DNA of 64,000 bases from Bacillota bacterium (GCA_036830315.1 DAISOU010000001.1:14437-78436); one strand, 5' to 3'; counted from the stretch's first letter, positions 50,242-63,515 are shown. Notes: generated from the letters alone by a model not told the origin. Numbers and translations: made by a program.

Positions 50242-50282
50242 AAAAAGCGTGCGACTGATAATCAATTAATCGCACGCTTTTT
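50242..50282 (-). terminator. Terminator after the GH81 gene
   Basis: AAAAAGCGTGCGA/TCGCACGCTTTTT. Confidence 0.8.
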
Positions 50283-50295
50283 AAAGAATTTCCAG

Positions 50296-53205
50296 TTACA
50301 GATCGACAGAGGTAAACCCACTTACAGCCACTACTTCCTTAATTTTATTACCGCCATAATGAATAGTGACAGTCTTATTGTTCTTACCAGCATTCCAAAG
50401 AAGAACAACTTCTTTAAAACCATTATCGTAGACACTTCCTGCAACATTTGAGGTTATCTCAGCGTAAGAAGCTGAAGAATGATTCTTCAGCCCGTCCATC
50501 GCCTCCACCATCCAATAGGCACCGGACAATTCATTTGGATAATCATCACCAAGTATCTTATTATCGTCAAAGTTATAGATGGCTGTTGAAGAAGAACAGA
50601 GAGACTGGATGGACCACATATTGGAAAACCAGGTTTTAGGTGCTCCGCCTCTTTCTTTCAAAAAGGTATTATAGATCTTTGTCAGTTTCTTCTGCTCATC
50701 GTTTCCCAAAGCATAGGATGATAAGTATTCACCGGTTGGAAGCCAATGAATTCCATAGATGAATTCCGGACTTGGTCCAAACCAAGTCTGGTATTCGTTC
50801 TTGCCACCCCAGACCATGCCTAGAGCATGGACATTGGCACTTGCCGGTATGCCGCTGTCATACCAGTTAGTCTCATCATAATCAAACCAGTACTGTTTAA
50901 CAGAATATAGTTCAGTAGTGTATCCGTAGATGCTGGTATCTACTAATTCTGTATCGCCTGTTGCCAATCCAAACAGATAACCTGCCACCCAGGAATTAAG
51001 GGCTTCACCGCAGGATTCCTGATTATTGCCATCTCCGGCATCTCCGAATCCATCCGACCAACTATGGCCGGAATATGTGTCAAAAGTTCGTAGATATGGA
51101 TACATCTCATCATCTTCGTGATCATAGCTTTCATAGTCTTTCAGTAAGAGAGAAACCATACCTTTGTAGCTAGTCAGGAATGCAGAATCAAACATAGACA
51201 AAACTGCGCTGGCAAAAACCAGGTATCCGTGGGTGAAATGATGATCGCTTAATCTAGTTCCAGTCGAGAAGGCATCATCGCTATAGTACATGCTTCCCCA
51301 AGTATCGTTATAGTAAAGATAACGGGAATCATTTTCACCACTATAGGTGAACCAGTCATCTAAGATAAGACGGATCTTCTCAATAAAGTTGGCCTTGAGT
51401 CTTTCTTCATTCAACTGACTGGCGATAATAAGGCCTTGACTTAACGGATATAGAGCTTTGCTGTTCCAATATGGAGCCGTATTATCGAGATAGTCTTTAG
51501 AATCGACTTTATCGTCATAGACACCATCTGAGACCAAGTTATCATTGAGGCGGTTAAGATAAGAAACCATCTTGATCTTATCAAAGGTAGAAGAAGTCGG
51601 AGTCGTGAAGGAAGGGAGGACGCCTGCAAAACTCATGCTGGTATCAAAGCTATCGTCTGCCAGCATTTTAATCGTTCCTCTCATTGCTTCAACCGAATAT
51701 GGGGAAGGAGTCGAAGCTGTTTTCTTCCACTGATGAGGAAGAAGACCGAAAACGGAAGTCGCATCTGTTTTATCAATATGCTGGACATTGACAGAATAAT
51801 GAGTGTTGACTAAGCTCTTTTTATGGTCGACTGTGAAAGAGGAATTGGACCTGCAAGCCATTGAATAAGCATGCTGATGATAGAAGCTGACCATTTCCTT
51901 CGAGAAGGACTCCCCTAAAGGTGTAACGGAAAAATAATTTCCTTTTGTCGGAGCAATGGTCAGACGATCCAGGAAAGAACTGTCAGGATGAGAATTATGT
52001 TTGGGTGTAAAGACTGTGTTTTCAGGTGCATTGATCAGGAAAAACACATCCTTATATATAGGAGCGCCAAAGGAGACACCATTGCTGACACCATTGTCCT
52101 GATAACTATAACCGCGATGTCTTGATACCAAGGAGACGATTATTCCCTCAGAGGTTATAGGAGTCAGTCCATCTATCTGAGTGCCGTCAAGATTAAAGTA
52201 GCGATAACCGCCAGTCACGCCATCGATTGACAGATCGATATCAGTAGGAGCAGTTCCTTTGGTTTCAAAGAAGACATAAGGAGAACCCTGAGCATAGGTA
52301 ACAACCAAATCATCAATGTTATCGGCCTGATTCTTCAAAGCAACCCTCAAGCCGTTTTCGGAATATGACTGAACTTCAATTTTTGTATTACCGCTTTTAG
52401 CCGGCTTGATCTTCAGATCTCGAAAAGTGGGAGTGAAGTTTGAGATGGTCTTACTAGTATAGGAACCGTTATCAGCCATATCCTTATTAGTACGGTAAAC
52501 CTGGTCACCTCCGACTCCGACATCGGAGATTTCAACTCCGCCATCGATAAAACTGGAACGATACTGATTTATATATAGACCAGTATTAGATGGATTGGTA
52601 AAAAGTCCGCTATACCAAGAATTGGTAGGTATTGGGTTCTCTAATAAATCAGCCCGGATATTGTTAGGGTTGGCAGGGTTGGGGGCCTTAGTCGTACCGG
52701 TTGCATAAGAGCCATCTCCAATATTTACCTGAGTATTGGAAGAATGAGCCTTATTGTTAACTGGCGCCGTATAGGTTCCATTATCACTTACAGTAATAGT
52801 TCTTTGATTAGTTTCAGTCTTAGAATTGTAATCAAGAGTATAAGTCAAAACATAGGACCCGACTGTTCCATAATCCACATAACCGCTGCAACTTATATTA
52901 TCGGTTATATCTATACCAGTTGAAGAAGTAGCTGATACGCCTTCGAAAGCATCAAAATAGTGACCGGTCTTGATTGTAATATCATCGATGCCTTTAATCG
53001 AAGTGGGATCACCTGGTTCAACTGATGATGATGAATTCTGAGATTCTGAATCCTCACCTGTCGATATAGAAGAATCTACATTATTTGAATTTTCACAACT
53101 AGAGGGTGAACTATCAGTCCCTGAGCTTATGATACTTGAATTATTTCCGCAGCTGCAAAGTAAAAACACAGTAAGTAAGCTGATTGCTTTTCGAAGTTTT
53201 TTCAT
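50296..53205 (-). CDS. GH81 endo-beta-1,3-glucanase lipoprotein with DUF5011-type Ig domain
   Basis: Start MKKLRK after AGGAG; lipobox LCSC; Ser linker; PIPTNSWYS, SDHHFTHGY, RTFDTYSGHSW, NNQESCGEALN, GIHWLP motifs. Confidence 0.88.
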   Translation of the reverse strand: MKKLRKAISLLTVFLLCSCGNNSSIISSGTDSSPSSCENSNNVDSSISTGEDSESQNSSSSVEPGDPTSIKGIDDITIKTGHYFDAFEGVSATSSTGIDITDNISCSGYVDYGTVGSYVLTYTLDYNSKTETNQRTITVSDNGTYTAPVNNKAHSSNTQVNIGDGSYATGTTKAPNPANPNNIRADLLENPIPTNSWYSGLFTNPSNTGLYINQYRSSFIDGGVEISDVGVGGDQVYRTNKDMADNGSYTSKTISNFTPTFRDLKIKPAKSGNTKIEVQSYSENGLRVALKNQADNIDDLVVTYAQGSPYVFFETKGTAPTDIDLSIDGVTGGYRYFNLDGTQIDGLTPITSEGIIVSLVSRHRGYSYQDNGVSNGVSFGAPIYKDVFFLINAPENTVFTPKHNSHPDSSFLDRLTIAPTKGNYFSVTPLGESFSKEMVSFYHQHAYSMACRSNSSFTVDHKKSLVNTHYSVNVQHIDKTDATSVFGLLPHQWKKTASTPSPYSVEAMRGTIKMLADDSFDTSMSFAGVLPSFTTPTSSTFDKIKMVSYLNRLNDNLVSDGVYDDKVDSKDYLDNTAPYWNSKALYPLSQGLIIASQLNEERLKANFIEKIRLILDDWFTYSGENDSRYLYYNDTWGSMYYSDDAFSTGTRLSDHHFTHGYLVFASAVLSMFDSAFLTSYKGMVSLLLKDYESYDHEDDEMYPYLRTFDTYSGHSWSDGFGDAGDGNNQESCGEALNSWVAGYLFGLATGDTELVDTSIYGYTTELYSVKQYWFDYDETNWYDSGIPASANVHALGMVWGGKNEYQTWFGPSPEFIYGIHWLPTGEYLSSYALGNDEQKKLTKIYNTFLKERGGAPKTWFSNMWSIQSLCSSSTAIYNFDDNKILGDDYPNELSGAYWMVEAMDGLKNHSSASYAEITSNVAGSVYDNGFKEVVLLWNAGKNNKTVTIHYGGNKIKEVVAVSGFTSVDL

Positions 53206-53280
53206 TTGATTACTCCTAATGATGAATATTGAACGACTATAGGGCAAACTATTATAGACCATTGAATACCTATAGACTTA

Positions 53281-53311
53281 AAAGGCCCCATGAAGTTAAA
53301 ATGGGGCCTTT
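53281..53311 (-). terminator. Intergenic hairpin between lipoprotein and GH81 genes
   Basis: AAAGGCCCCAT-N9-ATGGGGCCTTT with a short U-tail. Confidence 0.65.
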
Positions 53312-53329
53312 CAAGAATACAGATTTTAA

Positions 53330-55510
53330 TTATTCAGCCAGAACACAGGACTGTGAGACGACTTCAAAGTAAGCGTCGGTGGTATCGGCCTTACCGGTGA
53401 AAACCTCACAAAGCTTGCAAGTCACATCATTCAAGGTGACATTGACAGTGAAAGTGTGATCGGCAGCAGCGACAAATTCAGCGCTGGGGAAACCTAATCC
53501 CATGACGATTTCAGTCGCACTGACGACAGTTTCTCCAACTAAGCCAGTTGAAGTCAAGGTAGCTCCGGTCGAAGTGACGATTTTTGCCGTGGTGTTATCA
53601 ACACAGCCAGCAGTCAGAGTATAGCCTTCAGCCCAAGTGACATGAGCCTTGAGCCAGGCTCCGCCGACACCCGAAGATAGTTTTACAGCAAAGCGAGTGG
53701 AGACATCTTCATCAGGGCCAGCAGCTTTGACAGTGATTTCAACTGTGGCCTTATATTCCTTAGAATCGATTGTCACAGAGGCAGTTATTATAGCTGTTCC
53801 TTCCTTGATACCAGTGACTACGCCAGTAGCAGAATCGACAGTTGCAATAGCTTCATCAGACGAAAGGAAGGCAATCGTTCCGGCACCGTATTTGATTTCA
53901 GCTGTCAAAGTGATGGTTTCACCGACTTTGACGGACTTCTTAGTAGAAGTGAAGTTCACTTCCGGACTTAAGACATCAAAGACATCTTCATCATGTTTTA
54001 AGACAGGCATGGTATTATCGGCAAAAGTGAAAACCGTATCCGATAAGGAAGCAAAGCTATCCTTGGTGCAGGAAGCAAAATCAACATTGTTTAAATTGGA
54101 GACGTGAGTATCAGCAATGGTTCCGCCGTTAGGATTGAAGGGCTTGAAGTTTTCATTAGCGGTATCGTGTGCAATATTGGTATAGCCGTTCTGAATCTTA
54201 AATTCACCAGCATCTGCAAATGAATAAGCAAAGAAGGGGAAACACATGGCATCGGGAGCCATCAAATTGGTGACGATGTTATTGATCTTGGCAGCACCGG
54301 AGATGCAGCTGGCAATAACTCCGTTTCTTCCCCAAGTCCAATCTGAAGCTGTACGAGTGTGAGCGGCTTCAAAAATACAATTTTCAATGCTTCCGCCATT
54401 GACTTCCTTAGCTAACAGACCAGAGAAACCAGCGGCATCGATGGCACCGATAAGATGAATATTTCTCATTACGCCGTTGAACAGCCAGAAGATACCAGTG
54501 GCTTTTTCTTTTTCGTTTTCGGAATCATTCCTGACATTGAAATTCTTGACCGTATAACCACAGCCATCTAAAGTGCCGGAGAAGACATTTCCTTCATTAG
54601 AGTTATTTTTAGCGCGTCCGTTTAAAACAGCACCATTCAAATCGATATTCTTTCCTAAAGCATACTTGCCATTGATTGTTCCTTTAGTCTCAACCATAGC
54701 CAAAAACTCGGAAGCAGTATTGATCTTAGTATAGCTATCATAATTAGCGGCAACAGTAAACTCCATTGAAGCGGGATATTCTTTGCCCTCATAAGTGGCA
54801 GTACAGGTGATAGTGGAAGATCCATAGTTTGTCGGTGTGACCCACTGGGAGTTTTCTTTAAATCCCGCAGCTACGGCTGAGCCGATAGCCACTGCATTTG
54901 AACTAGTCGCCCAAGCATAAGTAATAGAGGCATCAGCTTTGGCATTAACTAAAGTAGCAGTGACTAAGTTAGCGCCGCCCCCTTCAGTCAAATTGTTCTT
55001 ATCACCCTCTCTTAAAGCCAAAGTCAGACTGATCACAGCCTTTGCTTCTACCTTGACTGTCAAAGTACCAAACTTACTGGTATCAAAAACAGAAGTGGCT
55101 TTGATGACAGCAGTTCCATCACCGATACCAGTGACCACGCCATTATTATCAACAGTGGCTACTGTTTCCGTATCACTGGACCAAGTCACCTTCTGACTGG
55201 CCTCATCGACAACGACGACAGAAGCAGTAAAGGTAGCAGTGTCTCCGACTTCAATAGTATCCTTACCGGTAACAGTTACCGAAGTAACACTGGGATTCTT
55301 AATAGCTGTAGAACTAGAAGAATCGGGAGCAGGAGTAGATGATTCAATAGATGAAGCCGTAGTCTTATCAGATAAAACAGAACTTTGAGATGAAGAGGCT
55401 GCAGAAGAAGTAGGTGAAGAGCTTAATTTCTCCGATAAGGATGAAATATCTCCGCAACTCGCCAAGGACAATAAGCCTGAAGCTAAAACTAAAAGGATTT
55501 TCTTTTTCAT
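53330..55510 (-). CDS. Lipoprotein with Big_2 Ig domains and a central GLUG-like beta-helix domain
   Basis: Lipobox LASC; Big_2 VTWSSDTETVATVDNNGVVTG and FLSSDEAIATVDSATGVVTG; YTKINTASEF...YALGKNIDL...FSGTLDGCGYTV. Confidence 0.72.
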   Translation of the reverse strand: MKKKILLVLASGLLSLASCGDISSLSEKLSSSPTSSAASSSQSSVLSDKTTASSIESSTPAPDSSSSTAIKNPSVTSVTVTGKDTIEVGDTATFTASVVVVDEASQKVTWSSDTETVATVDNNGVVTGIGDGTAVIKATSVFDTSKFGTLTVKVEAKAVISLTLALREGDKNNLTEGGGANLVTATLVNAKADASITYAWATSSNAVAIGSAVAAGFKENSQWVTPTNYGSSTITCTATYEGKEYPASMEFTVAANYDSYTKINTASEFLAMVETKGTINGKYALGKNIDLNGAVLNGRAKNNSNEGNVFSGTLDGCGYTVKNFNVRNDSENEKEKATGIFWLFNGVMRNIHLIGAIDAAGFSGLLAKEVNGGSIENCIFEAAHTRTASDWTWGRNGVIASCISGAAKINNIVTNLMAPDAMCFPFFAYSFADAGEFKIQNGYTNIAHDTANENFKPFNPNGGTIADTHVSNLNNVDFASCTKDSFASLSDTVFTFADNTMPVLKHDEDVFDVLSPEVNFTSTKKSVKVGETITLTAEIKYGAGTIAFLSSDEAIATVDSATGVVTGIKEGTAIITASVTIDSKEYKATVEITVKAAGPDEDVSTRFAVKLSSGVGGAWLKAHVTWAEGYTLTAGCVDNTTAKIVTSTGATLTSTGLVGETVVSATEIVMGLGFPSAEFVAAADHTFTVNVTLNDVTCKLCEVFTGKADTTDAYFEVVSQSCVLAE

Positions 55511-55565
55511 TGTAATCTCCCTTTTACCAGCCTTTCAAAGAAAACTGGTTCAATGAACAGCAGTC

Positions 55566-55615
55566 ATTTTATAAAGGAAAAATAATAAAGTCAACGCAAT
55601 AAAAAAGGGCTTTCA
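55566..55615 (-). promoter_or_regulatory. Promoter of 53330..55510 with upstream operator
   Basis: TTGACT (55594-55589), 17 bp, TAAAAT (55571-55566); TGAAAGCCCTT at 55615-55605. Confidence 0.75.
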
Positions 55616-55619
55616 ATTA

Positions 55620-57005
55620 GTGGCAATTATTTGATTTCATTCTTGAAACAGCAAAAGCAAAGAAATGCAAAATAATAAGTTTAGATGATTATATTTATTT
55701 TACATATTGTAATTAATTCAAAAATACAAAAATCATAATCAAATGGCTTTTTTCATAAAATAGAAGCAATTATCAAAAAACATTTGGGTCCTGTTATTAA
55801 GAATGGTTTTTTCCGTTTTCCCTTCATTATAATTTTTGAATAAACGAACATACTTTAAGTTAAACAGCAGAGGTGCAAAAAAATAATGAATTGCTTATCA
55901 AAAGCCGATGTAATTTAAATAAATTTTCTTTTAATAATCATTTTATTTCCTGTAATTATCGTGTAAACCAACTTTATAATTTAAATTAAATGTTTATCAT
56001 TAAATAATTAAAAAAATTTATTTGTATGATTTCCAAATAACCCGAAATTAAATAAGTCTCAAGTGAAAAGCAAAAACAATTTTACTATAGAAAAATTAAA
56101 AAAGCTTAGTTATGTATTCAGTTTTTTTGCCTTATAACACTATTATTTATAATTTTTTTATTAATCGTGTTTTTTTAGGAAACTAGCTTTCATAAATATA
56201 TAATTTGTAACATGTTTTTAAGGATTTTTTCTATTTTTTTATTTCTGCTTCTGATCAAAAATTGACATATAAAATGGTATTATTTTCTTATAAAATTGTA
56301 GCCCTTTCTTGGTCTTGAGCAAAAGGTGTACATTATTTAAACTCAAACTTCAAAAATCTTACCAATCAAGTAAAAAAACATGTCTTCGGCGAAAAAGAAA
56401 AATTCAAATCTTTTTTGTCTTTTGTTCGATAATGTCTATTTTTTGAGATTTACATTCACTTTTAGATCGATTGATTGCAATCTGAAGATAAAGTTTTTTG
56501 GAAAATTTATAAATATAACAAACCAATGATTTTTCATTATGATCAAACCATTTTTGGCGTATGTTCTCCATTCCGTTTCTTTGGTTTCAAAATCAATCGC
56601 AAAGGCTCAACAGCGTTTACCAGCCGTTTATTCGATAATGTGACTTTTGTTAATATACTATTTCATAAAACAATTTCTGTTCAACAAACACACCAGAAAA
56701 GGCTTTCTTTATTAATAGTATTGAAGTATACGATCGTTGTTATTAAGTAATTCTCAATCAAAAAAGCAGTCATCAATTTACTTTTGAAACACATGAATTA
56801 TTATTGAAAAATAAGAAGGCTTGTTCTCTTGATTTCCTTTCCTTTTCAAATAATCTTTTACGACTTGCATTAATTAAAAGCCACAAAAAAAGAGCATGTC
56901 CATGCCCTTTTTCTTCGTCTGCTGAAGATAGTCAGAAAATATAGAAACCACTATTGAAGCTTACAATTCTAAACTTCAGTAAGATAGAAACACGCAAAAA
57001 AAGTT
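55620..57005. other. Very AT-rich, apparently non-coding spacer
   Basis: Two hand-counted 60-nt lines had 11 and 6 G+C; no credible ORF. Confidence 0.7.
56885..56912 (-). terminator. Terminator after the GH16 gene
   Basis: Minus strand AAAAAGGGCAT-ggac-ATGCTCTTTTTTT. Confidence 0.65.
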
Positions 57006-57009
57006 AATC

Positions 57010-57987
57010 CTAACTAATCCAATCATAGATTCTGACGTAATCAATCAACATTTCAGCACTAGTGAAAGAATCAGGAGGCATAACTCCATTATCAAAATTT
57101 CCGCCGACTGCCATATTCAGAAGGATGTGGAAAGGCTGATTAAAAGGAGAAGAATCATTTGTGGAATAAGAATCAGTATGCCAGGTAGAAGATGAAACTG
57201 TCATGAATTGGTTATCATCACAATACCAGGTAATGCCTTGTTCATTCCAAATGATGCCATAATTATGGTATTCGCCGATGGTAGTGTAATCTGTAAGTTT
57301 AAACACATTGGTACCTGCTTCATAAGCGTGTTGATTGTTGTCATTTGAATAATGAAGAGCTCCGGAAGTCTGATTAGTCAGCCTTCCTTTTGCTTCCATG
57401 ATATCGATTTCACCAGAATGAGGCCATCCCTGATTCTCATAGTTCTTTTCAGGCAACATCCAGAAAGCCGGCCATAATCCCTTGACTGCGGGAAGAGATA
57501 TACGCGCTTCAATCTTCCCATAAGTAGCTTTTACCTTCCCTTTAGTCCTCAGTCTTGAGGAAGTATAGGAATAACCGCCTACTGACTCTTTCTTAGCCGT
57601 AATAACTAATTTTCCGTCTCTGACTGAAGAATTGTTCCCCTGATAATATTCAGCCTCATTATTTCCCCAGCCCGAGATTCCGTAGGCATCACCGTTACCT
57701 GTCATGTTTTCCCAGATATTGGTATTCAGACTAGCTGAAGAAAATTCATCTGACCAGGATAGTTTCCATCCGGTCTCTTCACCTACTGAAGAAGATGAAG
57801 ATGATGTTGATGAACTTGCTTCAGAGCTGATTTCTGATGAAGAATCCTCCCCTATGCTGGATAGAGAACTATTTGAAGTAGACTCAGTGGAACTTTCAGA
57901 ACTCGAATTGGAATTACCTGAAAAGAGCATCTCACAGGAGTTAAGACTCATAAGGCTGATTAAGATTAAGGAACTGATTCTTTTCAT
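57010..57987 (-). CDS. GH16 beta-1,3-glucanase (laminarinase-type) lipoprotein
   Basis: Lipobox LNSC; Ser linker; WSDEF, GWGNNEAEYY, YTSSRL, WPAFWMLP, WPHSGEIDIME catalytic motif. Confidence 0.92.
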   Translation of the reverse strand: MKRISSLILISLMSLNSCEMLFSGNSNSSSESSTESTSNSSLSSIGEDSSSEISSEASSSTSSSSSSVGEETGWKLSWSDEFSSASLNTNIWENMTGNGDAYGISGWGNNEAEYYQGNNSSVRDGKLVITAKKESVGGYSYTSSRLRTKGKVKATYGKIEARISLPAVKGLWPAFWMLPEKNYENQGWPHSGEIDIMEAKGRLTNQTSGALHYSNDNNQHAYEAGTNVFKLTDYTTIGEYHNYGIIWNEQGITWYCDDNQFMTVSSSTWHTDSYSTNDSSPFNQPFHILLNMAVGGNFDNGVMPPDSFTSAEMLIDYVRIYDWIS

Positions 57988-58007
57988 GGTATATATTATC
58001 CTTTAAA

Positions 58008-58040
58008 CAAATAAGGCTGATTATTCATCAGCCTTATTTG
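58008..58040 (-). terminator. Intergenic hairpin between lipoprotein and GH16 genes
   Basis: CAAATAAGGCTGAT-N5-ATCAGCCTTATTTG. Confidence 0.7.
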
Positions 58041-58082
58041 AGCATTCTAACGGCAAAAGACAAACAAAACTAATAGATGCTT

Positions 58083-59516
58083 TTAAGCCAGGGCCTTAAT
58101 AGTAGGCATCTGATTTTCTTTGATATCAAAGATATGAGAATCCAAATCAGCATAAGAAGCGACAGTGGCATTAGTCCAATTGATTCCAGTGTGATAAGTG
58201 GTCTGATCTTCGACAGGGCTTCCCCATTCCCAGACAGATCCACCGACGACTGTAGAATCAGTATAGAAGTTGACAACTGAGAAAGCCTGAGTACTTTGTG
58301 CATTTGTTCCCTGAGAACCGCCAGCTGGATAAGCGACATCGGCAAAGATTGTCTTAAAGCCGGCTTCCGGAGTCTTGTTGACATTGACGACAATGTTGCG
58401 ATAAGTGCTGCCTTCCTTGAAGACACCAACTAAAGCGGAGTTGAAGGGGAACCACTTGTTGGCATCAATCAAAGACGAATTATCAAAAGTATGGGTTACC
58501 GAAACAAAGATGTTCTCTAAACTTCCAGAACAGGCCGCACAGATAGAAGAAGTGCCCCAGCCAGATCCCTTTTCTCCGATAGTAACGCCGTCAAATCCGA
58601 TGTTGGCGATGATTGATCCTGATTCAGTGGCGGAGAAGAAGCCGCCATTTGAATACTTGTCGGCAGTATTGCCAGTGACGGTGTAATTCTTAATTGAATA
58701 ACCCTGTCCGTCTAAAACACCGGCAAAGGAACTGTTGGTATAGGGAATGGTGTAATTTCCTAAATCAATATCAGAGGTAAGATAATAATTTCCGCTGATA
58801 GTAGCTCCTGTCAAGAGTTTGGTCTTAACATCGTCAGCTGTCGATAATGCGGTCCATCCAGTAGTGTGATCAGCCTTGACGAAGACAGGAATCGTCTTCT
58901 TGAAAGTATCCGAACCAACCTGGAAAGAAACCTGTATGGTATCGGAGCCAAAATTGTTGCAGCTATAGTTGACTGCGTTTGAAGTAGTGGAGCCAGTGAA
59001 GGTTCCCTTAGAATAAAGTGACTTCCAGTTATAAGTGATGGCGCCATCATAATCGGTGACAGTCGCAGTTAAGGCAATAGTATCCTTCTGGGTAGCCAAA
59101 GTCTTATCCGCTTCAATGGTGATGACAGGATTGACGACCGATATGACGTTGATATCTAAACTTGCAGAAACTGTGGCATCAGCTTTGGCAGTAGCCGTAA
59201 ACTTAGTTGTTCCGACTTTTTTTCCTGTAATCAAAACGGAACCATCGTTATTGATTGAACAAGTGGCGATAGAATCATCAGCCATCGCAATATCAAACCC
59301 GGCTTTAGTCGTATCACGGGTAAGAGTGACAGTTAAGTTAGTGGTTTTCCCAACCATGACAGTGCCTTCGCCAGTCAATTTGATCTTAATTTCCTGAGTA
59401 GTAGCTGAAGTTGAAGTACCAGATAAGTCGCCGCTATTGACAGAAGTACCGTTTTCACCACAACCAGTAACTAAGATTAATGAGGCAATAGCTAAGAATA
59501 AACCTGATTTTTTCAT
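58083..59516 (-). CDS. Lipoprotein with Ig-like domains and a GLUG-like beta-helix domain (paralogue-like to 53330..55510)
   Basis: Lipobox VTGC; Big_2 DDSIATCSINNDGSVLITG; WTALSTADD...YYLTSDIDL...FAGVLDGQGYSI. Confidence 0.72.
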   Translation of the reverse strand: MKKSGLFLAIASLILVTGCGENGTSVNSGDLSGTSTSATTQEIKIKLTGEGTVMVGKTTNLTVTLTRDTTKAGFDIAMADDSIATCSINNDGSVLITGKKVGTTKFTATAKADATVSASLDINVISVVNPVITIEADKTLATQKDTIALTATVTDYDGAITYNWKSLYSKGTFTGSTTSNAVNYSCNNFGSDTIQVSFQVGSDTFKKTIPVFVKADHTTGWTALSTADDVKTKLLTGATISGNYYLTSDIDLGNYTIPYTNSSFAGVLDGQGYSIKNYTVTGNTADKYSNGGFFSATESGSIIANIGFDGVTIGEKGSGWGTSSICAACSGSLENIFVSVTHTFDNSSLIDANKWFPFNSALVGVFKEGSTYRNIVVNVNKTPEAGFKTIFADVAYPAGGSQGTNAQSTQAFSVVNFYTDSTVVGGSVWEWGSPVEDQTTYHTGINWTNATVASYADLDSHIFDIKENQMPTIKALA

Positions 59517-59580
59517 TATTTACGTCCTCCCATAATAATGATGAAGAATAGAATCTGATGATTTCTATTTCATTGACCTG

Positions 59581-59631
59581 ATTATATTTTGGAACTTGGA
59601 AAAAAGTCCCAATATTTCGTAAGGGCTTTCA
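59581..59631 (-). promoter_or_regulatory. Promoter of 58083..59516 with the same upstream operator
   Basis: TATAAT (59586-59581); weak -35 GGGACT (59610-59605, 18-bp spacer); TGAAAGCCCTT at 59631-59621. Confidence 0.7.
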
Positions 59632-59650
59632 TTTTTTTCTTATTTGGTAA

Positions 59651-61492
59651 TCAACTTCTAGTCAAGACGAAATTGTCGAGCTGATAAACGACGCCTTTAT
59701 TGTTTATTCTAAGAATGTTCATCCCCTGATTGAAGGCAATTTCTCCAAAAGCGACGTCTTTGAACTGATCGACAGCGTTGGAAGTCAGTATCTCCACTCC
59801 TTCTTCTTTAATGGTCACATTGTTGAGAGTCATATCAAAGAGATTTACTGAATTTGTCTTAACCAGATTCAGATAGGATAAGGCCATGGTCAGTTTCAAA
59901 CTATAGCTTTCTTTCAGATACACGTATAAGAGAATTGAGGAATAGGAACTGGAATTGGAGATGAATAGACTGTTTGAGGCTTTACGGCTATAGTTTCTGA
60001 CCTCGTCTCCTAAAAGGATCAAGTCTTCTCCTTCCATCTTCAAAGTGGTGGTGGCTTCATCGATTCTGGTATTGAACAAAGTAAGACAATCCAAATCATA
60101 ATTGCCAGTGACAGAGATTACCTTCAAAGAGTGCTTTCCTTCCTGGATGACTATATTATTGACTAAGACATCGAAGAAATTGTAATAATCTGTCGGAACC
60201 AGGTTATAAGCTAAAGGAATTAAATCTTCGTCGTCCAGAGTAAATCTGATGACGTGAGAAATATCAAGCTCTTCTCCGACATAGGATAACCTGATAGCCA
60301 AACGTGAATAACAGGCTTCCAGAGTATGGAGAGTGAAGTCGACATAGGTACTTGGCCCGTTAAAGCCGACAATATCATGATTCGGGCCTGAGATCAAACA
60401 GCCGTTGACTAAGATAGCATCCTCGGCTTCAAACCTCTGATTGGAGATAACCGATGAGAGGTTGATGTCGCTGTTGAGAGTAATAGAATCCAAATAGAAG
60501 AATCCGCCCAGGTTTTTGAGAGTAATAGTGTTGCTTCCCTTGATCAAATTAATATACCCAAAGTCAAGACTGCTATAAGAATCCGTCATCGAGGAAAAAG
60601 GCTGATTGTTTATCTTCACATCATTGACAGTGATTTCAACACCCGGCGTATTACTGGATTCGCTCTTTTTCCGGGCTTGGATAGCTAATGAGCTTGTCGT
60701 TTTCTCATCGCTTGAGAAATAAAAGGAAATAGAATCATCCGGGCTTGTAAAGAAGACAGAGTATTTTGTCGAGGCCTTGTCATCAGTGACAATGACAGCA
60801 CCTTGGATATTCTGCTGTCTTTCAGCTTCAAAGACTTGTTTTTTCTCTCGGCTCTTAAAATCACCGCTTTGATAGCCGATCGATGTTTCCTTGGTTGTTT
60901 TTTCCTTTGAGGAAACCAATAAAAGATAATCGATAGAATAAGTGTTAGATAAGGCTGTTATCTTGATTTCGTTTTTTCCGGCACTGAGATTGACCAAAGC
61001 CAGAGTATTCTCCATGAAATCATATTCATCAAAGGAGGGATTGATTTTCAAAGGAAGTTTCACTTCGTTTGAATTCACGTTCAAAGTCATCAAGTTTGAA
61101 GCGGCAATCGCCTTTCCAGTCTGAGAAACATATGATGTCGCAACCACTAGTTTCGCTTCCATAGAATAGGAAACTGACACTTCCAAAGTCAGGGAGGAAC
61201 CGGTAAATAATTCGGTGACCACCTCTTGGTTAGAAGCGTGTATATTGTCCTTCACTTCCGCCGAGCCTGAGAGTTTTGCCGATTCGGCCTCATAAATCTG
61301 ACCCCCAGAGTCTTCTTTGAAAATCTTGGTGTCGCTGCGGTCAATGTATTCGTGATAGGAATAAGTCGGATAATCAGCCAGTGACATCTTCTGCATTATT
61401 GAAACACCGACAATAGAAAGGCAGATTGCAAAAGCGATGATGGTTCCGATGATAGAGAAGATAATATAAAACCGCGATGATTTCTTTTTCAT
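59651..61492 (-). CDS. Membrane-anchored protein with four CBM6/CBM35-like modules
   Basis: N-terminal TM; repeats start YEAESAKL, FEAERQQ, FEAEDAIL, MEGEDLIL and end ..IDYL / ..LDSI / ..LDCL / ..LDNF; no catalytic domain seen. Confidence 0.7.
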   Translation of the reverse strand: MKKKSSRFYIIFSIIGTIIAFAICLSIVGVSIMQKMSLADYPTYSYHEYIDRSDTKIFKEDSGGQIYEAESAKLSGSAEVKDNIHASNQEVVTELFTGSSLTLEVSVSYSMEAKLVVATSYVSQTGKAIAASNLMTLNVNSNEVKLPLKINPSFDEYDFMENTLALVNLSAGKNEIKITALSNTYSIDYLLLVSSKEKTTKETSIGYQSGDFKSREKKQVFEAERQQNIQGAVIVTDDKASTKYSVFFTSPDDSISFYFSSDEKTTSSLAIQARKKSESSNTPGVEITVNDVKINNQPFSSMTDSYSSLDFGYINLIKGSNTITLKNLGGFFYLDSITLNSDINLSSVISNQRFEAEDAILVNGCLISGPNHDIVGFNGPSTYVDFTLHTLEACYSRLAIRLSYVGEELDISHVIRFTLDDEDLIPLAYNLVPTDYYNFFDVLVNNIVIQEGKHSLKVISVTGNYDLDCLTLFNTRIDEATTTLKMEGEDLILLGDEVRNYSRKASNSLFISNSSSYSSILLYVYLKESYSLKLTMALSYLNLVKTNSVNLFDMTLNNVTIKEEGVEILTSNAVDQFKDVAFGEIAFNQGMNILRINNKGVVYQLDNFVLTRS

Positions 61493-62805
61493 TTGTTTTT
61501 GCCTCTGCTAATTGGAATAACACAGTCAACCTGAAACATTTTATCCGCTAGGAAAAGATATATGGTCCCCTTGTATTTATCAACGATCTTCCCCATAGAC
61601 CTAGTTCCAAAGCCATGGTTTTCCTTATCGGCCTTGTCAGTCTTGAGAAAATCGGAGGAATTGCTGTTTTCTTCCGCAAAGAAATTTTCACAGTGAATGA
61701 AGACCTTATTGTCGATGGCCTTGATTGTCAAAGATATAAAACGTTTAGTCGGATCAGTTATCTTGCTTTCATAATCAAGGGCATTGTCAAGCATATTGCC
61801 AAAGAGAGAATAGATATCCTGAGTATCCATAAAGTCGATGGCTTTTCCATCTGTCATACAGGTCAGGACAATCTTGTTTTTCTGACAGCGAAGAGATACG
61901 GAGGAGAGAATGACATCCAGAACTTCGTTTCCAGTTTGAACAATGGACTGATAGATATCGGCTGATTCCTCTAACTGATTGACGATTTTTTCATTCACAA
62001 TGCCAGTTGTCTTGATATCTTCAATCTGATGTTTCAAATCATGAACTTTGATGTTGATCATTTCCATGTTCTCTTTCTGAATCTCATAGTGCTTTCGGTC
62101 TTCTACCCAGATTTGTTTGATAACGGCTATTTCATCTTCTGACTCACCCTGATTCAATAAGGAATAGCAAATCAGGAACATCATCAGTCCATAGAAGACC
62201 TCGCAGATTATAAGCATCATGATATAGGAGGTTGTCGTCGCCTGGATATAAATTTCTATGGCTTCCATCGCTAGTGAGACAACTGAGAAGAAGATACTGA
62301 AGAATAGCAGGTCTTTTAGACCAATCTTATCGATTTTTTCCTGATATCGGGAAATAAAGAATCTCTGAGTGAAGGCTATGACAATGCAAAAGGACAACAA
62401 TTCGATCAGCAGATTGTAATATTCGTTAATGGTTGAAAAAGCATTGTTCAGGGAAATGACGATCAAAGATCCTATCTGTCTGGCCAGGAAGTGAGTCAAA
62501 CCCAAAGCACTTTCCGAAAAACAGGCATAGGCAATACTTGTCTCGTATAAGCTGACTATGGCAGCTGAATCCAGAATATAGAAAAGAAAGACAGTAACTA
62601 AAAGCCAATATGATTGCTGGTTTTCAGGAGCAAAAGAATAAAAATAAGGTAAGAGGAGAACGATTAAAAGACTCAAGGCAAAAAACAAAAAAGCCTTTAA
62701 GAGAAACAGTTTCCTTTTCTTTAATTCCTTTGCAGACAAAAAGAAGGAAATTAAAAACTCCACAAAGAACAATGATGAGTAGGCGACTAAATATAGATAG
62801 TTCAA
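61489..62805 (-). CDS. AgrC-like membrane sensor histidine kinase (GHKL domain)
   Basis: About seven TM segments; KVHDLKHQI H-box, LFGNMLDNA N-box, HGFGTRSM. Confidence 0.88.
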   Translation of the reverse strand: MNYLYLVAYSSLFFVEFLISFFLSAKELKKRKLFLLKAFLFFALSLLIVLLLPYFYSFAPENQQSYWLLVTVFLFYILDSAAIVSLYETSIAYACFSESALGLTHFLARQIGSLIVISLNNAFSTINEYYNLLIELLSFCIVIAFTQRFFISRYQEKIDKIGLKDLLFFSIFFSVVSLAMEAIEIYIQATTTSYIMMLIICEVFYGLMMFLICYSLLNQGESEDEIAVIKQIWVEDRKHYEIQKENMEMINIKVHDLKHQIEDIKTTGIVNEKIVNQLEESADIYQSIVQTGNEVLDVILSSVSLRCQKNKIVLTCMTDGKAIDFMDTQDIYSLFGNMLDNALDYESKITDPTKRFISLTIKAIDNKVFIHCENFFAEENSNSSDFLKTDKADKENHGFGTRSMGKIVDKYKGTIYLFLADKMFQVDCVIPISRGKNK

Positions 62806-63515
62806 GACAGAGACACTTTCTTTTCGTTCAGCTTGTTCAGGACATCTTTCTTTTTGTTACGGGAAAAAGAAATTGGAATCTTCCTGTTAGTCAGATAAGC
62901 TTTGTCTTTGTCAATCGATGTCACTTTCTGAATATTGATAATAACGGAATTGCTGCAACGGGAAAACATATCATCGGGAAGGGACGCTTTCGCGTTAGCC
63001 AAAGTTCCCCAGACTTCTACTTCTTCCTCATTATCGAGATAATAAATCAATAAGTGGTCTTTGATTTCGACATAGAGAATTGAAGACAAGGAAACTTTTT
63101 TAGCTCCGCCGGTGGTCTTGAGAATGATTTCCTGATCTTTGTTTGATCCGACTATCTTCATTGTTTTGATCATCAAAGATTCAAAACGTGCATATTGAAT
63201 AGGTTTCAAAACATAGTCGATAGCATCGACTTGGTAGCCTTGAATCGCATACTGAACCAAGTTGGTAATAAAGATCAAAGGGACATTGCGGTCTTTTTCA
63301 CGTAATTTTTTAGCTACTTCCATACCATTCATATGAGGCATCTCAATATCCATGAAAATCAAATCAAAGTTCTTGCTTTCGTCTAAAAAAGAAAGACCTT
63401 CCTTATAGTGGGTGATGCTGAAAAGAAAATTATTATCCTCTCCAAATTTTAAAAGAAAGCCCTTAAGCGTTTCAAAAGCTTCGTCCTCGTCTTCGACAAT
63501 TGCAGTTTTAATCAT
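62802..63515 (-). CDS. LytTR-family (AgrA-like) response regulator
   Basis: IVEDE, FMDIEM, IDYVLKP receiver; ILYVE...H, FSRCSNSVIIN LytTR domain. Confidence 0.92.
   Translation of the reverse strand: MIKTAIVEDEDEAFETLKGFLLKFGEDNNFLFSITHYKEGLSFLDESKNFDLIFMDIEMPHMNGMEVAKKLREKDRNVPLIFITNLVQYAIQGYQVDAIDYVLKPIQYARFESLMIKTMKIVGSNKDQEIILKTTGGAKKVSLSSILYVEIKDHLLIYYLDNEEEVEVWGTLANAKASLPDDMFSRCSNSVIINIQKVTSIDKDKAYLTNRKIPISFSRNKKKDVLNKLNEKKVSLS

Follow-up and report, generated by a model that had tools for sequence, protein, structure and literature searches.

Newbury, Smith and Higgins reportedly showed in 1987 that intercistronic hairpins of the repetitive extragenic palindromic (REP) type between malE and malF of Escherichia coli go together with an excess of the binding protein over the downstream products. 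In Ruminiclostridium cellulolyticum, internal intrinsic terminators stand after the substrate-binding-protein genes of ATP-binding cassette (ABC) importer operons; their U content is lower, their U tracts pair with 5′ sequence and their termination efficiency follows the length of the poly(U) (Wu et al. 2022, PMC9045158). In Bacteroides, non-catalytic partner proteins and an enzyme of glycoside hydrolase family 16 (GH16) act jointly on β-1,3-glucan at the cell surface (PMC7157763). Here we analyse a stretch of 64,000 nt, called the window below, from the genome of a Bacillota bacterium (GCA_036830315.1, DAISOU010000001.1:14437-78436), in which each of two genes for surface lipoproteins is followed by a hairpin and then by a gene for a predicted endo-β-1,3-glucanase.

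A preliminary description of positions 50242-59631 had set out two parallel modules, each running from a promoter through a binding lipoprotein, a hairpin and a glucanase to a terminator. We re-examined both modules, and every coordinate of the promoters, lipoproteins, hairpins, terminators and a bare TATAAT holds on the minus strand, where all their genes and features lie. Module A comprises lipoprotein A (477 aa, 58083-59516), hairpin A (58008-58040), a GH16 enzyme (57010-57987) and a terminator (56885-56914). Module B comprises lipoprotein B (726 aa, 53330-55510), hairpin B (53277-53315), an enzyme of family GH81 (969 aa, 50296-53205) and a terminator (50242-50282). The parallel was well drawn: lipoproteins A and B are paralogues built of immunoglobulin (Ig)-like domains and a β-helix, with 24% identity across 451 aligned positions (BLASTP, E = 2e-13), and the identical 11-mer, TGAAAGCCCTT, is present in both promoters.

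On balance, we favour a model in which each module is a two-gene operon, transcribed from a promoter with the shared 11-mer upstream. The first cistron would encode a membrane-anchored Ig-Ig-β-helix lipoprotein and the second a membrane-anchored endo-β-1,3-glucanase. The hairpin between them, with its GC-rich stem and an interrupted U tract paired with an upstream A tract, would act as a partial intrinsic terminator, and the 3′ stem left on the short transcript would protect it. Lipoprotein mRNA would then exceed glucanase mRNA, the enzyme being supplied by read-through and the lipoprotein made in excess. We infer that termination is partial, that the lipoproteins bind glycan and that a LytTR regulator is in control, and likewise which transcript is in excess and by how much; the case is stronger in module A than in module B.

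Hairpins between the paired genes

Hairpin A has a 14-bp stem and a 5-nt loop (GAAUA), and its U-rich 3′ side, UUAUUUGUUU, pairs with an A-rich tract on the 5′ side. It ends 20 nt before the ATG of the GH16 gene. The 95-nt gap that holds it folds with −25.5 kcal/mol (z = −4.7), a value reached by 0 of 200 shuffled sequences. Hairpin B consists of a 15-bp stem and a 9-nt loop, with the core GGCCCCAU/AUGGGGCC at 53281-53311 and the 3′ tail UUUUAAGU, and ends 71 nt before the ATG of the GH81 gene. Its gap likewise folds better than all 200 shuffles (z = −5.6), and at −22.7 kcal/mol the hairpin itself is within the strongest 5% of the genome. Both hairpins share two of the traits by which internal terminators were described (PMC9045158): a stem-loop in the gap after the first gene, which codes for an extracellular protein, and a short or interrupted 3′ U tract, often paired with a 5′ A tract.

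The module ends look different. In the terminator of module A the hairpin is followed by UUUUUUU, and in that of module B a GC-rich stem of 13 bp is followed by UUUUUCUU (z = −3.3). Compared with these module-end tails (UUUUUUUG and UUUUUCUU, with 7 and 5 uninterrupted U), the internal tails, UUAUUUGU in module A and UUUUAAGU in module B, are weaker. As the U-tract scores of the four hairpins vary with the chosen stem end, we rely on the raw tails and on a genome-wide contrast given below.

Two other identities were considered for the internal hairpins and rejected. They are not dispersed REP-like repeats, each being unique in the genome. Nor are they a known cis-regulatory RNA: at E ≤ 1, the intergenic regions gave no Rfam match except tRNAs and one chance match.

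The shape of stems and tails bears on an explanation that dispenses with termination altogether. The whole operon would be transcribed, an RNase would cut in the intergenic region and the stem-loop would block 3′ exonucleases, as in selective RNA processing and stabilisation, a mechanism by which a Firmicute that degrades polysaccharides fixes the ratio of its enzymes (PMC4423207). Long, GC-rich stems and interrupted U tracts are what it would lead one to expect, and several orthologous hairpins are very poor in U at their tails (among them UUAUAAAA in L026 and UUUCUAAG in L025). The window hairpins, however, do have U-rich tails, tails comparable to theirs sufficed for partial termination in R. 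cellulolyticum (PMC9045158), and no processing-site motif was identified. We hold processing as the sole mechanism to be quite unlikely; it is not exclusive with partial termination.

Module A and module B in related genomes

Eleven loci have the lipoprotein A-GH16 pair, at 33-91% identity, and most often it follows a unit of regulator, kinase and 613-aa membrane protein. A hairpin of −16 to −29 kcal/mol occupies the gap in nine of them, that is in six of eight lineages, and the stem sequences differ between lineages. When eight of these hairpins are aligned, the share of paired cells is 88%, compared with 68% in shuffles, none of 500 of which attains the observed value; both partners have changed in eight of the 13 stem pairs, and controls with a slid register are paired at 26-54%. 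Within the window's own genome such a hairpin is present in 21% of comparable co-directional gaps, and the binomial probability of finding it in six of seven lineages is 6e-4. These figures suggest that the fold of hairpin A is under selection, the case being good but not conclusive.

Between hairpin and GH16 start there are some 15-35 nt across the loci (20 nt in the window), and this stretch includes the ribosome-binding site (RBS), which leaves too little room for a promoter. Upstream of the hairpin, no −10-like box is conserved across the orthologous loci. A TAGAAT at 58049-58044, behind the stop codon of lipoprotein A and ahead of the hairpin, was rejected as a promoter element since even the sister genome lacks it. 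This agrees with the preliminary description, in which no promoter was evident before GH16. In the orthologous locus L003 the two genes are separated by 16 nt without a hairpin, a gap which points to co-transcription of lipoprotein A and GH16 as the ancestral state.

These same distances count against a second explanation, in which the lipoprotein genes would be monocistronic, the hairpins would stop essentially all transcription behind them, and each glucanase would have a promoter of its own. A GH16 promoter would have to overlap hairpin A, no −10 or −35 element is conserved in the nine loci, and the short gap of L003 speaks for one transcript. What the explanation has on its side in the genome at large is that the U content of the internal hairpins is normal and that 36% of co-directional gaps of 40-110 nt carry some hairpin. 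We consider it unlikely, and return to it for module B.

In genome G017, of the window's family, the pair is joined in one chain. A lipoprotein of 722 aa (L016:331-2499, minus strand) combines an Ig-like domain, a β-helix and a GH16 domain: residues 206-447 match the β-helix module (hhalign probability 99.9%, E = 1e-32), and residues 473-719 form a GH16 domain 49% identical to that of the window. Three fused β-helix-GH16 proteins are on record (P0138-P0140). Synteny and fusion together support the pairing of lipoprotein A with GH16. With this, comparison supports a role of hairpin A as a putative internal attenuator or stabiliser within a lipoprotein A-GH16 operon, and co-transcription with read-through would be the simplest reading.

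The lipoprotein-hairpin-glucanase layout is not special within this genome. Hairpins of −10 kcal/mol or better are found in 171 of 516 co-directional gaps, and 39 of them end at most 35 nt from the next start. The mean longest U run of these 39 internal hairpins is 3.05-3.26, versus about 4.2 in the others (Mann-Whitney p = 8e-4 and 5e-5); the window hairpins fall in the lower to middle range of the distribution and are not extreme. Genes with a lipobox are enriched upstream of the 39 (8/39 vs 121/1402, Fisher p = 0.015). The junctions include, confirmed by Pfam, a Bmp binding protein and a Peripla_BP_4 binding protein, each before an ABC ATPase, as well as GAPDH before PGK and DnaK before DnaJ; EF-Ts before PyrH was recognised by its N-terminal motif. 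In each of these named pairs, cells normally need more of the upstream product than of the downstream one. The pattern looks like a genome-wide use of internal attenuators. EF-Tu is also among the upstream genes of the 39 junctions.

The β-glucan and β-glucoside operons of Bacillus are under terminator/antiterminator control by the BglG/LicT family. By that precedent the window hairpins could be conditional switches, where an antiterminator protein or translation coupling would regulate read-through into the glucanase and no fixed ratio would result; hairpin conservation stricter than a simple terminator needs would agree with it. We find this very improbable. Around the stems there is neither an alternative antiterminator fold nor a conserved sequence, Rfam offers no match, and the layout also follows housekeeping genes. 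Moreover, the stems are wholly different between lineages, which makes a sequence-specific RNA-binding protein unlikely.

The surroundings of GH81 vary more widely. The order holds 13 other GH81 orthologues (38-49% identity, all lipoproteins), and no A- or B-like lipoprotein, GH16 or two-component-system gene lies within about 6 kb of them (tblastn, E ≤ 1e-6); for this reason we rejected an obligate partnership of lipoprotein B and GH81. Two of the 13 loci have a more distant β-helix protein downstream of GH81. Elsewhere, B-like genes stand upstream of the two-component system, neighbour A-like genes or open an ABC importer operon. GH81 is preceded in another family by an unrelated Flg_new/CBM4_9 lipoprotein, in one case with a hairpin between; in a third, a hairpin stands behind a B-like lipoprotein and, about 22 nt further on, an operon of binding protein, permease and GH16 genes begins. 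A theme of a surface non-catalytic protein, a hairpin and then the remaining glucan machinery thus appears to recur, and one-to-one pairing would hold for module A only. Each lipoprotein had been proposed as the partner of its own glucanase: for lipoprotein A and GH16 the proposal gains from synteny and fusion, and for lipoprotein B and GH81, adjacent in just two close genomes, it is not supported.

Some details of these loci may be recorded. In L057 and L060 the Flg_new and CBM4_9-like lipoprotein before GH81 has about 500 aa, and a C-terminally anchored membrane protein follows GH81, whose N-terminus bears the β-helix cap motif of lipoproteins A and B (hhalign probability 96.7%). In L103 and L104 (genomes G098 and G093) the operon runs from the B-like lipoprotein and the hairpin through SBP_bac_1, two permeases, a 475-aa β-helix lipoprotein and a 1028-aa protein to a GH16 lipoprotein. 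The 1028-aa protein is cytoplasmic, has no Pfam match and is possibly a glucan phosphorylase.

Several points weigh against the favoured model and are gathered here. The covariation count comes from about six lineages, whose sequences also served to derive the structure. A hairpin is missing from two orthologous module A junctions, those of L003 and L008. The genome-wide statistics use our own heuristic calls of open reading frames (ORFs), 1402 genes in all. The longest U run is 3 in hairpin A (26th percentile) and 4 in hairpin B (50th percentile), both normal for the genome; U content not clearly below that of typical terminators means that the internal hairpins could stop most transcripts. 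The lipoprotein B-GH81 pair is found only in the window and in the close sister genome, L024. In module B, finally, a spacer of 71 nt with the TATAAT follows the hairpin, and −10-like hexamers are present at the end of the lipoprotein B gene, which together leave room for an independent or additional start of GH81.

For module B in particular, the second explanation would run as follows: the lipoprotein B gene once stood alone and has kept its terminator as hairpin B, and GH81 arrived later and is transcribed from the TATAAT at 53251-53256. Solitary B-like genes elsewhere (L003, L025) do end in strong terminators, and the adjacency of lipoprotein B and GH81 is lineage-specific. Against it, the TATAAT is as bare as the preliminary description had it: with no usable −35 element and unlisted by the sigma-70 scan, it is a possible weak internal promoter of GH81. 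L024 keeps the TATAAT and an identical stem of hairpin B with a different loop, and is too close a genome for this conservation to be informative. We retain the two-gene operon with partial termination for both modules. As for the earlier suggestion of leaky terminators or stabilising stems, the nine hairpins in 11 junctions and their covariation favour it in module A; in module B, with two close genomes and the spacer just described, it is tentative.

The encoded proteins and their upstream region

The GH16 product is a predicted endo-β-1,3-glucanase of the laminarinase type. It matches PF00722 with 73 bits against a cut-off of 22 (2e-20), contains the catalytic motif EIDIME (ExDxxE) and has the laminarinases 6jh5, 2vy0, 4crq and 3azx as its closest solved structures, the top PDB matches reaching E = 2.5e-54. 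A Ser-rich stalk is present, as it is in the GH81 product, which in addition has an Ig-like spacer. The latter is equally a predicted endo-β-1,3-glucanase: for the (α/α)6 catalytic domain of the GH81 family at the C-terminus, it matches PF17652 with 135 bits against a cut-off of 25.6 (4e-39); it matches PF16403 as well, and among solved structures it comes closest to 6fop (E = 8.5e-65 over residues 416-950) and to that of BH0236, 5t49. Its start is most likely the ATG at 53205 behind AGGAG (MKKLRK...LLCSC), and not the longest-ORF start at 53262.

By inspection, all four products carry lipoboxes: LVTGC in lipoprotein A, SLNSC in GH16, LASC in lipoprotein B and LLCSC in GH81. The GH16 and GH81 orthologues retain theirs. 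With both enzymes bearing a lipobox, the word 'lipoprotein' does not separate the first gene of a pair from the second.

Lipoprotein A has 13 homologues among the proteins searched. Its AlphaFold model shows two Ig-like domains and a C-terminal β-helix (pLDDT 82; 85.5 for a separate model of the C-terminal domain). Lipoprotein B, with a Pfam match to Big_2, is composed of Big_2/Ig domains, a β-helix as in lipoprotein A, and further Big_2-like and C-terminal domains. Searches of Pfam and NCBIfam returned no carbohydrate-binding family for either protein, which places neither among recognised surface glycan-binding proteins or carbohydrate-binding modules (CBMs). A sequence search of the PDB gave Ig-like matches only; a fold search with the full-length model of lipoprotein A gave generic Ig-domain matches and no confident solved relative. 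For the β-helix domain the best fold match is PDB 3n6z, a weak one (E = 6e-3, TM 0.34), the search giving none at E ≤ 0.001. Just two acidic residues are conserved throughout the A and B families, both in the cap motif, so that no catalytic site can be inferred in the β-helix. Of the 'binding lipoprotein' named at the outset, the lipoboxes uphold the second word; binding was an assumption, with no CBM family and no confident structural relative behind it. For lipoprotein A, synteny and the β-helix-GH16 fusion support a glycan role indirectly.

The profile of the β-helix domain matches 115 of the 301 genomes sampled in the order, and full-length matches occur in about 25 genomes. In an order-wide search, the N-terminal cap region of the β-helix was found by itself in many proteins of about 1000 aa.

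A bolder proposal can be made, tentatively and with more doubt than confidence. The Ig-Ig-β-helix lipoproteins would be a new Gram-positive family of surface β-1,3-glucan-binding proteins, counterparts of the surface glycan-binding proteins (SGBPs) of Bacteroides; the β-helix would be a new CBM-like module, marked by its fusion to GH16; and the hairpin would be a selected device that fixes an excess of binder over enzyme on the cell surface in these Bacilli of small genome.

Upstream of module A, a non-coding block of 37 nt, TTACCAAATAAGAAAAAAATGAAAGCCCTTACGAAAT (59614-59650), begins directly 3′ of the stop of the 613-aa gene and contains the 11-mer. Across seven orthologous loci 27 of its positions are invariant, with flanking proteins only 38-91% identical. 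The 11-mer itself lies at 59631-59621 in module A and at 55615-55605 in module B, 34 and 33 nt, respectively, from the −10 box; the whole 1.68-Mb genome has only four copies.

The candidate promoter of module A (59581-59610) consists of a −35 element GGGACT (59610-59605), an 18-nt spacer and a −10 box TATAAT (59586-59581). Its −35 element is weak and matches the consensus at three of six positions, which is why a plain sigma-70 scan missed the promoter. In the orthologous module A loci, a −10-like box stands at a fixed distance from the conserved block. The module A promoter is probably activator-dependent. In the promoter region of module B (55566-55615), a −35 element TTGACT (55594-55589) and a −10 box TAAAAT (55571-55566) are separated by 17 nt; it scores 10 of 12 matches in the scan and is kept in L024.

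The LytTR two-component system encoded next to the modules probably acts at the 11-mer. LytTR-dependent promoters are recognised by a weak −35 element preceded by two direct repeats of about 9 bp that stand about 12 bp apart, with a usual repeat period of 21 bp. Canonical repeats of this kind were not found in the conserved block, where TTAC[CG]AAAT occurs twice, but 28 bp apart. Of the two −35 elements, that of module A is weak and that of module B good.

A near-palindrome, AGAAATCWTCWGATTCT, lies in the 5′ untranslated region (UTR) of lipoprotein A (59540-59560, minus strand) and is kept in the leaders of orthologues, two loci having a variant form. A DNA operator and a small stem-loop of the 5′ leader are both conceivable roles for it. 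Considered as conserved stabilisers, the folds of the 5′ UTRs, the near-palindrome included, are weak and not significant (z = −1 to −2.4). In a related β-glucan locus of the ABC type, the binding-protein gene is preceded by TGAAAGCGCTTTCA, a perfect cre-like palindrome (L006:1312-1325 and L031:1201-1214); it resembles the window 11-mer in its first seven bases.

The host, an uncultured small-genome lineage of Bacilli, has its genome (G000, 1.68 Mb) in 60 contigs. In reading order, the region begins with a LytTR response regulator (62802-63515), an AgrC-type kinase (61489-62805) and the 613-aa membrane protein with weak CBM-like repeats (59651-61492), all on the minus strand and overlapping by 4 nt each. 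A search of NCBIfam with the 613-aa protein gave no match. Lipoprotein A, GH16, an AT-rich gap of 1.5 kb, lipoprotein B and GH81 follow. The best explanation of the region is that it forms part of a β-1,3-glucan utilisation locus. The gap between the modules (55511-57009) has 25.8% G+C. In the sister metagenome-assembled genome, L024 (91% identical), a 1008-aa gene and a methyltransferase gene take its place, and all that the two genomes have in common there is the lipoprotein B promoter, 85% identical over 110 nt, and a remnant of 132 nt (78% identical).

Comparison with described systems

The window modules resemble malE-malF in having a hairpin after the first cistron. They differ in that the REP element is a dispersed repeat and the window hairpins are unique, and in their Gram-positive-type host.

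The likeness to the internal terminators of R. cellulolyticum (PMC9045158) goes further. There too the first gene encodes an extracellular, lipid-anchored protein that would be needed in excess, a stem-loop lies in the short gap behind it, and a short or interrupted U tract is paired with a 5′ A-rich tract. No promoter precedes the downstream gene there, which would hold for GH16 as well; GH81 of the window has its bare TATAAT. The classic form is present in the window's own genome as well, at the two junctions from binding protein to ABC ATPase. What differs is the cargo: the upstream product here is an Ig-Ig-β-helix lipoprotein, not the binding protein of a transporter, and the downstream one a surface glucanase, not a translocator. 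Termination was measured in R. cellulolyticum and is here predicted.

In the cip-cel cellulosome operon, likewise of a Firmicute, the ratio of non-catalytic to catalytic components for polysaccharide degradation is fixed by stem-loops between the cistrons (Xu et al. 2015, PMC4423207; PMC10311766). This is achieved through endonucleolytic processing of one long transcript, unlike the window operons, which would have two genes each.

As to the proteins, the Bacteroides β-1,3-glucan loci similarly place lipid-anchored non-catalytic partners beside a lipid-anchored GH16 laminarinase (Dejean et al. 2020, PMC7157763). Unlike them, the window has no SusC/SusD, a β-helix in place of the SusD-like or Ig-based SGBP-B fold, and a LytTR regulator instead of a hybrid two-component one; binding is here only presumed. 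The C-terminal domain of the lipoproteins contains a cap motif, DIDL...FxGxLDGxGxxIxN, shared with the N-terminal β-helix of BACOVA_03286, a 'putative IgA1 protease' (3n6z), and with right-handed β-helices of the pectate-lyase type, though the match is weak.

Taken together, the modules represent a known regulatory layout with a new kind of surface protein, and reveal no new principle. Internal terminators that set stoichiometry have so far been shown mainly for ABC importers and cellulosome operons. The present case suggests that the device extends to non-transporter surface proteins for glycan capture and their enzymes, in uncultured, genome-reduced Bacilli of gut, rumen and digester, and its covariation is unusually clear for so short an element. 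The less ordinary element would be the Ig-β-helix lipoprotein family itself, which is without annotation, occurs in over a third of the genomes sampled in the order and appears tied to GH16 by synteny and fusion; it is a likely glucan-handling partner of GH16 and a target for binding assays.

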